From positions 1-48,962 of the forward strand of contig JAPKBD010000003.1 in the NCBI GenBank assembly GCA_028824965.1: 48,962 nucleotides of DNA. The letters are read 5' to 3'. The translations under genes were made by a program, and so were the position numbers. Positions 17,742 through 34,346 of the stretch are shown here, one piece after another; position 1 is the stretch's first letter, and each line of letters starts with the position of its first letter. This DNA comes from Alphaproteobacteria bacterium (lineage in GTDB: Bacteria > Pseudomonadota > Alphaproteobacteria > GCA-2731375). The notes beneath the pieces are model-generated. The model saw nothing but the letters and a program-made list of their open reading frames with translations. It was not told the DNA's origin and did no database searches.

Positions 17742-17860
17742 CAAATCTGTCTCCTACACAGGTTCCATTACTGTGCTACATGTCCGCTGAGCCTGAACGT
17801 ACCAGTGTCGGGCGATAGACGCCAGCTGACAGAAAGACCTTTGGATGAGCGATAATAGCT

Positions 17861-19159
17861 ATGAATGATACTGGGCATCGATCGCGGGCTGCCGCAGCGC
17901 GCTTGTTGGGGCAGATACTGGACCGCGGTCAAATGCTGGATCAGGCCCTGGCTGATGAATTGGAGACGGGCGGTCGCCTGGCATCCCTGGAACCACGGGA
18001 TCGGGCCTTTGCGCGATTGCTGACCATGACCGTGCTGCGACGCCTTGGCCAAATTGACGATGCGATAAACCGTTGCTTGGATAAGCCGTTGAACCGGGCG
18101 GCAAAACCTGCCCTGAATTCCCTGCGTCTTGCGGCCGCACAGGCGATGTTTCTAGGCACCCCTGCGCACGCCATAGCGGACGGCGCCGTCCGCCTGATGG
18201 GACCGCACCGACGCCATTTGACCGGCCTGGTTAATGCGGTGGCCCGGCGTTTGATACGCGAAGCGCCAGCCATATTGGCAGATCAGGATGCCGCGCGGCT
18301 GAATTGCCCAAAATGGCTGTGGCAGACATGGAAAAAAACCTATGGCGTGGAAACAACAACAAAAATGATGGACATTATGTTGTCAGAACCTCCCCTAGAT
18401 CTGACGTTTAAAAATGAGCCGGAAAAATGGCGGGAAGCTTTACAGGGGGAAATGCTGCCAACGGGCAGTATGCGCCGTACGGCGGGTGGGGCGATCCAGA
18501 CATTGCCTGGATTTTCAGAGGGGGAATGGTGGGTCCAGGATGCGGCTGCGGCGCTGCCTATGGCTTTGCTGGGCAAAGACATAAAGGGCCGGGCGGTGTT
18601 GGACCTATGTGCGGCACCGGGGGGCAAGACCGCGCAAATGGCGGCGGCGGGTGCGCAGGTAACGGCTGTTGATAATGAGCAGAATAGAATGGCGCTGGTG
18701 GAAGCCAATTTGGAGCGTCTGAATTTACAAGCGGAGACAATTGTCGCCGACATTATAACCTGGCGACCGGAAAAACCGTTTGATTTCATACTGCTGGATG
18801 CACCGTGTAGTGCCACGGGCACCATACGCAGGCATCCAGATATCTGGCATTTGCGGACCGCTAAGGTGCCAAAGGAAATGGCCTTGGTGCAGGATGGTAT
18901 GTTGGCGGCTGCGGTGGATATGCTGGCGCCAGGTGGCATATTAATTTTTTGCACCTGTTCCCTGCAGCCAGAGGAAGGCGAAGCGCGCATCGAAGCGTTA
19001 TTTGCGACTGATGCCCCGGTCTCCAGACAGCCAATTACAGCTGATGAACTATTTGGCCTGGAACAGCTGATAACACCCCTTGGGGATATGCGGACCCTAC
19101 CTCATTACCTAGGCGGAATGGATGGATTTTATGCCTGTCGCCTTGTACGGGACGCTTAG
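17861..19159 (+). CDS. rsmB: RsmB/NOP family RNA m5C methyltransferase with an N-terminal NusB-like domain
   Basis: VQDAAA, DLCAAPGGKT, LLDAPCSATG, FCTCS and DGFY motifs. Confidence 0.9.
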   Translation: MNDTGHRSRAAAARLLGQILDRGQMLDQALADELETGGRLASLEPRDRAFARLLTMTVLRRLGQIDDAINRCLDKPLNRAAKPALNSLRLAAAQAMFLGTPAHAIADGAVRLMGPHRRHLTGLVNAVARRLIREAPAILADQDAARLNCPKWLWQTWKKTYGVETTTKMMDIMLSEPPLDLTFKNEPEKWREALQGEMLPTGSMRRTAGGAIQTLPGFSEGEWWVQDAAAALPMALLGKDIKGRAVLDLCAAPGGKTAQMAAAGAQVTAVDNEQNRMALVEANLERLNLQAETIVADIITWRPEKPFDFILLDAPCSATGTIRRHPDIWHLRTAKVPKEMALVQDGMLAAAVDMLAPGGILIFCTCSLQPEEGEARIEALFATDAPVSRQPITADELFGLEQLITPLGDMRTLPHYLGGMDGFYACRLVRDA

Positions 19160-30778: not shown

Positions 30779-32220
30779 GCGTTTGGTTGGGGATTGGCGG
30801 CCTTACGCTCGTTGCTATGTTGCCAATATTGTGGCCGCTATTGCGTCCTTCACAAACGGTGAATGATCGCCTGGACCATGACTTAGAGGTCTACCGCGAT
30901 CAAATTCGGGAAGTAGAGGCCGAACTTGCCGCTAATGCGTTGACCGTGCAGGAGGCGGATGAAACGAAGCGGGAAATCGAACGGCGCATATTGCGTGCCG
31001 CAGACCATGGTCAAAGCCCAAAAGAGCCTGCGGCACCTGCAGCAATAACGGCCGTTGTGATCGCCTTATTGCTGCCGGCGCTTACCTTTTTGCTGTACAC
31101 CCAGCTTGGCCAACCGACAGAAAAAGATCAGCCACTGGCTGAACGAGATATTACGGCACCGGCGCCGGCACCACAGAATTTATCCAAAGACCAAAATCAG
31201 CAAATCAATGAAATGGTGGCACGCCTGGCTACGCGGCTTGAAAACCAACCAGATGACCGGGATGGCTGGATTTTACTGGGCCGGTCCTACGCTTCAATGG
31301 ATCGATTTGAGGATGCCGCTAACGTACTGCGCAAGGCGCTGGCGCTGTCCAACGATGATGCTGAATTGCAGGTGGCGTTCGGCGATATCCTTACCAAAGC
31401 TGCAGGCGGCACAATCACACCGGAAGCCTTGCGCGCGTTTAAGACTGCACTGACCCTGGCACCACAGCAATTGGCTGCGCGCTATTTCCTGGCCTTGGCA
31501 GACTTACAGGCCGGCCAGCCAAAAAGTGCCTATGATGCGTGGCTGGCACTTTATAAGGAGCTGCCGGCTGACAGCGATAATAGAGTCGCCCTTGCCGAAC
31601 AGATCCGTCGGGTCGCACAACAAATCGGCGTGGACCCGGCAAGTGATCTAGCGGATGCCGGACCGGCCAATCGCCCTGCAACATCCTCTGCGACATCCTC
31701 TGCGCCAAAGTCTGATGCGGCACCTGGACCTGACCGCGCTGCCATGGCCGCCGCAGCTGAATTATCACCTGCTGAGCGCCAGGAATTCATCCAATCCATG
31801 GTCCAGCGCTTAGCAGATCGCCTGAAAGATGACCCGGATGACTTTTCGGGCTGGATGCGTTTGGGCAAAGCCTATGGCGTGCTAGGTAAAACACCGCAAT
31901 CAGCAGATGCGTATGGCCATGCGGCCTCCTTGCGGCCAAATGATCCCGGTCCATTGAACGCCCAGGTGATGGCTCTGATACAAGACGCCTCGTCGGAGCA
32001 AATTTTACCAATTGCGACCCTGGACATATTTCGAAAACTGGAGAAATTGCAGCCGCGCAACCCGCGCGCCCTGTGGTTCTTAGGCATGGCAGATGCAGAT
32101 GCGGGCCGTTCGAAGGCCGCCCTGGAACGCTGGCAACGTTTGCACGACCAACTGCCTAAGGGCAGCAAGGAACGTGAAAACATTCGAACTGCAATCGATG
32201 GTTTGGGAGCCGCCAAATAG
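30775..32220 (+). CDS. ccmI: Cytochrome c biogenesis protein CcmI/CycH (TPR)
   Basis: VYRDQ motif, two TMs, and TPR blocks with a repeated MV.RLA.RL...PDD..GW..LG..Y unit. Confidence 0.9.
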   Translation: MSVWLGIGGLTLVAMLPILWPLLRPSQTVNDRLDHDLEVYRDQIREVEAELAANALTVQEADETKREIERRILRAADHGQSPKEPAAPAAITAVVIALLLPALTFLLYTQLGQPTEKDQPLAERDITAPAPAPQNLSKDQNQQINEMVARLATRLENQPDDRDGWILLGRSYASMDRFEDAANVLRKALALSNDDAELQVAFGDILTKAAGGTITPEALRAFKTALTLAPQQLAARYFLALADLQAGQPKSAYDAWLALYKELPADSDNRVALAEQIRRVAQQIGVDPASDLADAGPANRPATSSATSSAPKSDAAPGPDRAAMAAAAELSPAERQEFIQSMVQRLADRLKDDPDDFSGWMRLGKAYGVLGKTPQSADAYGHAASLRPNDPGPLNAQVMALIQDASSEQILPIATLDIFRKLEKLQPRNPRALWFLGMADADAGRSKAALERWQRLHDQLPKGSKERENIRTAIDGLGAAK

Positions 32221-32318
32221 GCTGTTTGGATAACAGTTTACAATTCCTTAAATGAATCGATGCTAGGCTAATACTTCAATACGATGTGGTGGCCCAAAAG
32301 GCACATCACCAGGAGGGA

Positions 32319-32397
32319 AATCGAAAAGGCATACCGTCGGCGACGGCGGGACGCAAAGTCACCGGTCTGAGTATTTCAGATAGCGGGGCCGCCGAAG
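32319..32397 (+). ncRNA. c-di-GMP-I (GEMM) riboswitch aptamer
   Basis: Sequence TCGAAAAGGCATA-CCGTCG-GCGA-CGGCGG-GACGCAAAG-TCACCGG-TCTGA-GTATT-TCAGA-TAGCGGGGCCGCCGA. It shows a GNRA-capped P2, the conserved GACGCAAAG junction, a P3 with internal loop and a short P1 (TCG/CGA), and it ends at the SD of the next gene. Confidence 0.88.
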
Positions 32398-32409
32398 GGA
32401 AATACGCTA

Positions 32410-32820
32410 ATGTCGACGGAAATGCCTGTATCGCTGCGCGCGATGATTGTTGATGATCAGCGCACAATGCGCTCAATTGTTCGTACACTATTGTCCCAAG
32501 TGGGAATTACCGATGTCATCGAAGCCGCTGATGGCGCGGAAGCGTATGCGAAGCTCGAGATGCCAGGCGAAACACCCCCCGATATTGTGATCTGCGATTT
32601 GCATATGAAGGATGGCGACGGGATGGCATTTTGCAACAAGCTGCGCCGTCACAAAAATGCTGACTTGGCACAGATCCCCGTTCTCATTCTAACCGGTGAT
32701 AGCGACGGCCTATTGCACGAGGTCGCGATGCAGATTGGCGCTGCTAAAGTATTGACCAAGCCTATATCCGCCCCTGATCTGGGGCGAGAGATCAGCCAGG
32801 CAGTGGGTTTCGCTGCCTAA
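32410..32820 (+). CDS. Single-domain response regulator (CheY-like receiver)
   Basis: VDD, phospho-acceptor Asp in ICDLHM, LTG and KP motifs; no output domain. Confidence 0.92.
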   Translation: MSTEMPVSLRAMIVDDQRTMRSIVRTLLSQVGITDVIEAADGAEAYAKLEMPGETPPDIVICDLHMKDGDGMAFCNKLRRHKNADLAQIPVLILTGDSDGLLHEVAMQIGAAKVLTKPISAPDLGREISQAVGFAA

Positions 32821-32832
32821 ATAAAACTCCGT

Positions 32833-33999
32833 TTAGTGGAACGCCCCACCGATCAGATCCCGGGCGATGATAAGCCGCTGGATCTCATTCGGCCCTTCGC
32901 CAATCCGACGTATTCTCATTTCACGGAACCAGCGTTCAAAGGGAAAATCCTTTGTTACGCCATAGCCGCCGTGAATTTGCATGGCGCGGTCGACCACCCT
33001 GCCGCCCGCTTCCGTCGCCGCTATTTTTGCCATTGCCGCTTCAGTACGAAACGCCTCTCCCTTATCTGCTTTGTGAGCTGCCGCCAATGTTAGCCAGCGC
33101 GCCGTGCGAATATCCAATTCATTGTCGATCAACATATTCTGGACCGTCTGGCGCGTTGCCAGAAGATCGCCAAACGTCTCTCTGACCTTTACGTACGCGA
33201 CGGCCATATCCTGGGCCCGCATGGCCACGCCAAGGCAGGCTGCTGCATAAGGTATGCGGTTACGGGTCAAACGCTCGTTCGCGATTGCGAAACCGCCATC
33301 TACACGACCAAGAATATTCTCCGCCGGGACCCGAAGATCTTCAAACTGCAGCTCCGTCGCGTAATGGGTAGAACGCAGGGTATGGACGATGCGCCGCACA
33401 TGAAAGCCCGGCATATCCGTATCAACGATAAAACAGGTGACCCCGGCACGGCCCTTATCCGGGCTGGTCCGGGCAAAGACCAGGCCGAAATCCGCCCGGT
33501 CTGCGCCGGATATGAATATTTTTTGGCCATTAATAACCCATTCATCACCGTCTTTTACCGCACGGGTTTGAATGGCACGGGCCGGATCACTGCCGCCCGA
33601 CGGCTCCGTCAGGCCAAAAAAGCCACGCTTTTCCCCCCGCAACGTGGGCAGCAAATAGCGCTCCTTCTGATCATCATTGGCATCATAAAGCTGCGCCAAC
33701 CCCATGCTACCAAAAGTGCCGTAGCAGGGTGCATATAGGCCGGCACGATGTTGGGACATTTCCATGGCCAGCAAAGTCCGGGTCATCACATCCAGGCCCG
33801 CACCGCCGAATTCTTCCGGCACATCCATTTGATAGAGGCCCATGCCAGTCGTGATACCGACCAGTCGTTCATGGTCCTCAGCCGTCAGTTCGCTCGCATC
33901 CGGGTCCAAATCGGCCTCAAGTGGGTCGATTTCCTGTCGGACGAAGCGCCGCACCTGTTCGACCAACATCCGTTGTTCATCGGAAAGATCCAAATCCAT
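32833..33999 (-). CDS. Acyl-CoA dehydrogenase
   Basis: GLTEPSGGSD, NGQKIFI, QIHGGYG and IGEGPNEIQR motifs. Confidence 0.94.
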   Translation of the reverse strand: MDLDLSDEQRMLVEQVRRFVRQEIDPLEADLDPDASELTAEDHERLVGITTGMGLYQMDVPEEFGGAGLDVMTRTLLAMEMSQHRAGLYAPCYGTFGSMGLAQLYDANDDQKERYLLPTLRGEKRGFFGLTEPSGGSDPARAIQTRAVKDGDEWVINGQKIFISGADRADFGLVFARTSPDKGRAGVTCFIVDTDMPGFHVRRIVHTLRSTHYATELQFEDLRVPAENILGRVDGGFAIANERLTRNRIPYAAACLGVAMRAQDMAVAYVKVRETFGDLLATRQTVQNMLIDNELDIRTARWLTLAAAHKADKGEAFRTEAAMAKIAATEAGGRVVDRAMQIHGGYGVTKDFPFERWFREMRIRRIGEGPNEIQRLIIARDLIGGAFH

Positions 34000-34010
34000 C
34001 TGTCTATCTC

Positions 34011-34346
34011 CTAACTCAAACTCAGTTGGCCGATCCGTCGCGGTCGGTGATCATTATTCTCAGGCGGCAGGGCATTATGATCAGCCTTATGAACCTTCAA
34101 TAATTCCTCCCATCGGCTAAGGTATTGTTGGTTTATTTCGACCCTGAAACGAAAACCTTCGCCGCGCTTTGCTAATTCATCCTGCAATATACCGCGCAAC
34201 CCAAAAAGACTGCGTCCGCCAGCAAAGCCGATATAGAGGATTTCATCTGCATCGTTGGAAATCTGATAGACTCCAAGTTGGCCCAGCAGCTTTTTTGCAT
34301 TAGTAGCATCTAGCGATTGCCACGGCTTTTCCATTCGTATGGACAT
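34011..34346 (-). CDS. Small hypothetical protein with a GIY-YIG-like motif
   Basis: 111 aa containing GVYQI...ILYIGFAG; tightly packed between the crotonase and acyl-CoA dehydrogenase genes. Confidence 0.7.
   Translation of the reverse strand: MSIRMEKPWQSLDATNAKKLLGQLGVYQISNDADEILYIGFAGGRSLFGLRGILQDELAKRGEGFRFRVEINQQYLSRWEELLKVHKADHNALPPENNDHRPRRIGQLSLS

Follow-up and report, generated by a model that had tools for sequence, protein, structure and literature searches.

The window analysed here is a 48,962-nucleotide stretch of DNA from an uncultured marine alphaproteobacterium (contig JAPKBD010000003.1). On its plus strand, the ORF at 32410-32820, with stops on both sides, encodes a stand-alone receiver of 136 amino acids. 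Response_reg (PF00072, E 4.3e-23) is the only Pfam domain of the product, which is without an output domain. The neighbouring genes are ccmF, ccmG, ccmH and ccmI, the last of which ends with a stop codon at 32220, and an acyl-CoA dehydrogenase gene, not che genes. Further along, a small gene of the DUF7508 family (PF24348, E 2e-13) occupies 34011-34346 on the minus strand, between the acyl-CoA dehydrogenase gene and an enoyl-CoA hydratase-like gene. The leader of the receiver gene carries the subject of this analysis, a c-di-GMP-I (GEMM-I) aptamer at 32318-32396 on the plus strand. An earlier note on this DNA had placed such an aptamer directly upstream of a stand-alone receiver, and this arrangement was borne out, with the ORF beginning 13 nt beyond the aptamer.

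When the window was searched with cmscan against 4227 Rfam families, RF01051 (c-di-GMP-I) gave the sole match above a gathering threshold. The match covers the full model (positions 1-87 of 87) and scores 59.9 bits against a cut-off of 35 (E 2.5e-9), which answers the check proposed in the earlier note; the same match was recovered by a search of the whole genome. The aptamer is enclosed by an outer helix (P1) of three pairs, TCG/CGA, formed by 32321-32323 with 32393-32395. The Rfam alignment places GC/GC pairs at 32329-32330 with 32353-32354, and the first hairpin, CCGTCG-GCGA-CGGCGG, follows at 32334-32349. The junction GACGCAAAG (32350-32358) contains the AAA linker (32355-32357), and the second hairpin (32357-32390) carries TCTGA at 32366-32370 and TCAGA at 32376-32380. 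Thus the two hairpins are linked by AAA and the first is capped by a GNRA-type tetraloop (GCGA), and all helices and motifs that had been named for a full GEMM architecture lie where the earlier note put them. Close to its base, the second hairpin has A32361 as a bulge. The weak points of the aptamer are the outer helix, with only three pairs, and an A.C mismatch between 32357 and 32390. A metagenome contig encoding an identical receiver protein (L102) has G at 32357, which turns this mismatch into a G-C pair at the foot of the second hairpin. The first A of the Shine-Dalgarno sequence AAGGGA (32395-32400) is also the final nucleotide of P1, and 9 nt separate the sequence from the ATG at 32410. 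Together with the pair counts on 12 orthologues described below, the full-model match identifies 32318-32396 as a genuine canonical c-di-GMP-I riboswitch aptamer in the leader of the receiver gene.

The residues of the ligand pocket were located through the Rfam alignment. The columns that we take, by our own mapping, to correspond to G20, A47 and C92 of Vc2 hold G32328, A32355 and C32392 in the window, and all three are canonical. G32328 lies just 5' of the GC pair, A32355 is the first A after GACGC, and C32392 immediately precedes the 3' strand of P1. The interhelical pair is formed by C32352 and G32383. All five nucleotides are invariant across the 12 orthologues. Passages of PMC5888326 and PMC4744006 describe G20, A47 and C92 as ligand contacts and the interhelical C-G pair as universally conserved. 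The canonical G32328, A32355 and C32392 therefore predict c-di-GMP as the ligand, over cGAMP or the ligand of the "GGC" variant, in line with what the earlier note had read from the G at 32328.

A specificity variant, either c-di-GMP-I-GGC (RF03167) or the 3',3'-cGAMP-sensing GEMM-Ib, is very improbable, even though RF03167, with 60.5-69.8 bits against its cut-off of 59, is the best-scoring model for seven of nine orthologous aptamers. With this model the window aptamer reaches 57.8 bits, short of the cut-off. Moreover, the RF03167 consensus reads ACGCGAA, with a G after GACGC, whereas the window and every orthologue read ACGCAAA. We take the label "GGC" to refer to a G in the Vc2-A47 column, judging by the RF03167 consensus. 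With A in this defining column and a score below the cut-off, the "GGC" assignment was ruled out for the window. The higher scores of the variant model reflect overall sequence similarity, the RNAs themselves being canonical G/A/C aptamers. To our knowledge, the ligand of the c-di-GMP-I-GGC class has not been established, and our literature search for this class found only papers that list the model by name. An A at the Vc2-G20 position is reportedly the determinant of GEMM-Ib; the G found in this column in the window and in all 12 orthologues speaks against a 3',3'-cGAMP riboswitch of that kind. Ten aptamers (L007-L012, L016, L060, L081 and L085) are canonical, with A in the Vc2-A47 column, and nevertheless have RF03167 as their best-scoring model. 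Pipelines that keep the best-scoring member of the clan would mislabel such canonical aptamers as "GGC", which calls for caution in annotation.

The closest solved structure to the receiver is CheY (2chy, E 1.1e-14). Residues D15, D16, D63, T95 and K117 align with D12, D13, D57, T87 and K109 of CheY, indicating that the active site is conserved, and V114 stands where the alignment to 2chy has the switch residue Y106. The receiver scores 63.8 bits with the NCBIfam CheY equivalog model NF007901, against a cut-off of 189. This score and the lack of a che neighbourhood rule out a chemotaxis CheY proper. Of 194 candidates in the databases, 126 are relatives at E <=1e-10, and the sources of these call them only "response regulator" or "CheY-like". 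Judged by its sequence, the product of 32410-32820 is a generic orphan single-domain receiver.

To follow the aptamer-receiver unit, relatives of the receiver were collected from named public genomes, with one genome per species, giving 42 loci. Upstream regions of 20 loci (L007-L013 and L015-L027) were scanned with Rfam; L014 is without upstream DNA. In nine of these 20 (L007-L013, L015 and L016), a match of the c-di-GMP-I clan ends 13 nt before the ATG; the receivers of these nine are 68-90% identical. The spacing is 13 nt in the other aptamer-linked orthologues as well, except for 12 nt in L058, and the receivers of aptamer-linked orthologues are 68-91% identical. In the scan of 20 loci, no aptamer was found upstream of L018 (53% identity), L019 (52%) or eight remote receivers, and the upstream region of L101, from a second genus (60% identity), also lacks it. 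Four loci, L014, L017 (84 nt upstream), L098 and L100, end at contig edges and are uninformative on the aptamer. Of 33 genomes of the family, 14 hold the receiver at E <=1e-20, namely the window's own, 12 of the 20 other genomes of the genus and one of three of the second genus. After removal of duplicates there are 12 distinct receiver-linked leaders, to which metagenome contigs add four distinct ones and the single-base variant L102. The survey of orthologous upstream regions that the earlier note had called for thus finds the unit of aptamer and receiver in 16 distinct related sequences.

Pairing in the aptamer is well preserved. Standard pairs fill 95.1% of the 287 pair cells counted on the 12 leaders, compared with 29-50% when the partners are slid by 1-3 columns. 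Compensatory (two-sided) changes occur in three of 24 pairs, as many as are reached by 54 of 500 shuffles; this modest covariation follows from the close relationship of the leaders. The ATG is invariant in the 12 orthologues, and a purine tract (AAGGGA, AAAGGAG or GAAGGA) lies 0-1 nt past the CG of the outer helix in all 12 receiver-linked leaders. The unit follows ccmI in ten orthologues of the genus, as it does in the window. The orthologous loci come from MAGs labelled Rhodospirillaceae or Alphaproteobacteria bacterium, and the sequencing runs that contain the window DNA are seawater or marine metagenomes.

Further upstream, an alignment of ten orthologous leaders revealed a conserved block, GTTTAC ... 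TTAA ... TGnTA, at 32236-32269 on the plus strand. T32248, T32249 and A32250 are invariant in the ten leaders, and T32237, T32238, A32240 and A32251 are conserved in at least 90%. A scan with the sigma-70 consensus called no promoter at 32236-32269. This block may be a promoter for the riboswitch-receiver transcript. Between the block and the aptamer, folding predicts a 5' hairpin of nine pairs with a CAAAA loop at 32286-32309. The earlier note had drawn this hairpin at 32283-32307; the arms GATGTG (32283-32288) and CACATC (32302-32307) are indeed present, and ViennaRNA prefers the register that pairs 32286-32294 with 32300-32309. Folds read by eye show a stable hairpin of differing sequence at this 5' position in each of the 12 orthologous leaders. 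As an intrinsic terminator it was rejected, because no T-run follows the hairpin. Contigs from four RNA libraries cover only 32152-32364 and 32657-32900 of this region; they are contigs rather than reads, and DNA carry-over is possible. Those of two libraries from one study both end at 32364, inside the aptamer, and a third contig, from another study, spans 32169-32318. Since the RNA-library data are contigs, they demonstrate neither transcription nor an RNA end, and the gaps in their coverage are no evidence of missing expression.

No intrinsic terminator was found between the end of the aptamer (32396) and the ATG (32410). The lone terminator-like site on the plus strand falls inside the ORF, and such sites occur at the frequency expected from shuffles. 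The absence of a terminator, together with a Shine-Dalgarno sequence that starts in the last pair of P1, makes control of translation initiation the most likely mode, and the translational coupling put forward in the earlier note is a reasonable reading on the same grounds. It is very likely that the canonical c-di-GMP-I riboswitch controls the receiver gene at 32410-32820, and we predict with fair confidence that it acts at translation. The account that we propose as probable is that the aptamer sets the amount of receiver according to cellular c-di-GMP through translation initiation, with a leaning towards an ON switch.

It is rather improbable that the RNA binds its ligand and acts at another level, such as Rho-dependent termination or mRNA decay, or that it persists as a conserved relic and hardly regulates this gene. 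RNAalifold on the 12 leaders returned the aptamer with weak extras only, namely a five-pair helix (columns 23-27/172-176) and a four-pair hairpin over the AUG, with a covariation contribution of -0.61 kcal/mol; we did not rely on these weak extras as a conserved consensus switching helix. That no conserved switching helix is demonstrated statistically would suit control at another level or a relic, and so would the shared stop of the two RNA-library contigs at 32364, although contigs cannot reveal RNA ends and may derive from carried-over DNA. Against this stands the retention of a near-invariant aptamer at a fixed spacing of 13 nt (12 in L058) among receivers that are 68-91% identical. The kept spacing and aptamer sequence speak for selection that ties the aptamer to the start site.

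As for the sign of the translational switch, we lean slightly and tentatively towards ON on the basis of modelled folds. In the ligand-free RNA, initiation would be blocked by pairing of 32327-32341, the 5' half of the aptamer, with 32412-32427, which takes in the start codon and codons 2-6; binding of c-di-GMP would lock the aptamer and free the start region. The candidate anti-aptamer segment, 32412-32427 on the plus strand, runs from the G of the AUG through codon 6 and is complementary to 32327-32341 over 8 + 6 pairs in the MFE folds. In the window, the predicted MFE structure is this alternative fold with its 14 pairs (z = -3.3; none of 200 shuffles is as stable). When the aptamer is enforced, the modelled unpaired probability of the AUG in the window rises from 0.53 to 0.83 and that of positions +4 to +16 from 0.16 to 0.61. 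The anti-aptamer duplex has -22.2 kcal/mol, compared with -14.5 +/- 3.1 kcal/mol for synonymous recodings; of 1000 such recodings it surpasses 95.5%, a fraction of 0.045 being as strong. Across orthologues, the pairing exceeds the synonymous mean in 11 of 16. However, several results speak against an ON switch. In five of the 16 orthologues the pairing is weaker than this mean, and the fractions span 0.045-0.95. Only the window and L011 show the alternative fold strongly, and it is not conserved among the orthologues. In the other ten leaders, the accessibility of +4 to +16 shifts by no more than 0.02, except in L063, where it falls. For the window, adopting the aptamer fold carries a modelled penalty of 15.6 kcal/mol, so large that the ligand could win only kinetically. 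In addition, the enforced aptamer reduces accessibility of the Shine-Dalgarno sequence in 10 of 12 leaders (of the two exceptions, L058 is artefactual, its constraint having been mis-registered).

This last result is what would be expected if the same aptamer and gene formed a translational OFF switch, a slightly less probable reading in which the ligand closes the outer helix, the Shine-Dalgarno sequence is trapped in or beside an extended helix and the receiver level falls. The decreases are small, however, at 0.04-0.28. L016, L108 and L109, which diverge most among the receiver-linked leaders, have a 5' flank, GGCUUUCCG, that extends the outer helix without a break; it pairs with CGAAGGGAGCC, so that the Shine-Dalgarno sequence is covered. 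Most non-receiver aptamers of the family likewise carry, as judged by eye, a UCC-A-CG tract on the 5' side, opposite CG-AA-GGA. Yet these outer pairings drawn by eye vary between sequences and are absent in the window, L012 and L106; the window is without a pyrimidine tract that could pair with AAGGGA, its 5' flank being purine-rich (GGAGGGAAAU). Nor do flank-to-flank duplexes of the receiver class exceed those of shuffled sequences (z -1.2 to +1.4 with a crude mononucleotide shuffle). A precedent for OFF is the Cd1 riboswitch before a flagellar operon, which a passage of PMC4744006 describes as an off switch, and flagellin belongs to the same riboswitch regulon as the receiver studied here.

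In the window's genome, five RF01051 matches (57.6-71.1 bits) were detected. The four riboswitches besides that of the receiver precede genes for a flagellin (Flagellin_N and Flagellin_C), a Sel1-repeat protein, a 56-residue membrane protein and a 76-residue protein. GGDEF gives 12 matches in this genome, 11 of which are over the Pfam cut-off. Two of the aptamers, G000:C397:15264-15394 and 17771-17867 (L006 2265-2395 and 4772-4868), lie 2.4 kb apart, before the genes for the flagellin and the Sel1-repeat secreted protein, and paired aptamers about 1-2.7 kb apart on one contig are also found in G007, G008, G011, G013 and G015. The proteins encoded behind the remaining two, the 56-residue membrane protein (MLSS...; aptamer G000:C398:4597-4680, L002) and the 76-residue protein (MELNLSPS...; aptamer G000:C101:1542-1630, L001), have no Pfam match and recur behind aptamers in several genomes of the genus. 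The companion riboswitch-controlled genes suggest a role of the receiver in motility or in the motile-sessile decision. The designation "motility receiver" in the earlier note is not supported by the protein itself, given its score of 63.8 against 189 for the CheY equivalog and its ccm neighbours, and is suggested only by the genes behind the other riboswitches.

Besides the window's genome, 21 of 24 genomes of its family carry the riboswitch, with two to five matches each; a set of 16 genomes, each from a different alphaproteobacterial family outside this one, gave none. In a wider sample with one genome per family, 12 of 151 alphaproteobacterial genomes were positive, the window's included; outside the window's own family the count was 10 of 149 families. 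The view of the earlier note that this class is uncommon in Alphaproteobacteria therefore stands for the group as a whole, where it is found in a minority, and fails for the window's own family, where it is the rule. By these counts, one uncultured marine alphaproteobacterial family uses c-di-GMP-I RNA routinely. In other families, aptamers precede genes for ParA/MinD-like ATPases (three families; L080, L083 and L086), a gene for a LapG-like transglutaminase-like cysteine protease (L082) and, at a distance of 236 nt, a flagellar rod gene (L084). No receiver gene was found behind the aptamers of these other alphaproteobacterial families.

We also considered a lineage-specific c-di-GMP-I regulon of opposed logic, in which the receiver leader would be ON through masking of the start codon and the structural-gene leaders OFF through masking of the Shine-Dalgarno sequence. 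If this unlikely arrangement were true, high c-di-GMP would at once shut off flagellin and increase the amount of a receiver through which phosphoryl groups are diverted or relayed, providing an RNA-level bridge from c-di-GMP to a phosphorelay.

Comparison with known systems places the window riboswitch within an established class. It resembles Vc2 of Vibrio cholerae (before tfoY; RF01051) in the two hairpins and AAA linker, the equivalents of G20, A47 and C92, the interhelical C-G pair and its location in a sense 5' leader. It differs from Vc2 and RF01051 in the outer helix of three pairs, the lack of a terminator, the overlap of the Shine-Dalgarno sequence with the last pair of that helix and its uncultured marine alphaproteobacterial host. 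According to a passage of Weinberg et al. 2007, the tetraloop receptor is usually absent from GEMM RNAs with a GYRA loop, and in these an A is often bulged out close to where the second hairpin begins; the window matches this subtype in its GCGA loop, bulged A and absent tetraloop receptor. RF03167 is alike in overall sequence and differs in the column that gives the variant its name, which holds A, not G, in the window. The receiver shares with CheY of E. coli and Salmonella (2chy, 1udr) the DD acid pocket, the phospho-acceptor D, the T and the K, and differs in V114 for Y106, in the missing che neighbourhood and in its score below the equivalog cut-off.

The pairing of aptamer and gene also has a precedent. 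Table 2 of Weinberg et al. 2007 lists GEMM before cheY, in addition to flgB, flgC and a gene for a transglutaminase-like cysteine protease. The cheY cases in that table are alike in having the aptamer directly before a single-domain receiver gene, whereas the receiver of the window is neither part of a che cluster nor a CheY equivalog. A passage of the same paper names Deltaproteobacteria, Gammaproteobacteria, Firmicutes and Planctomycetes, and no Alphaproteobacteria, as taxa with GEMM; its supplement, which gives taxa and genes for each GEMM instance, may hold alphaproteobacterial or cheY cases. Our literature search found no title or abstract treating c-di-GMP riboswitches in Alphaproteobacteria. 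The "undescribed regulatory circuit" of the earlier note is thus contradicted by the 2007 table, and the aptamer itself is over the standard Rfam threshold. The locus is a new example of a known RNA class, with a gene pairing tabulated in 2007, in an under-represented lineage, and is not a new type of circuit. Whatever the receiver does in the cell, and whether the switch is ON or OFF, the understanding of this riboswitch class would not change. What the window adds is a clean, conserved c-di-GMP riboswitch in the Alphaproteobacteria, where the study of c-di-GMP is mostly protein-based.
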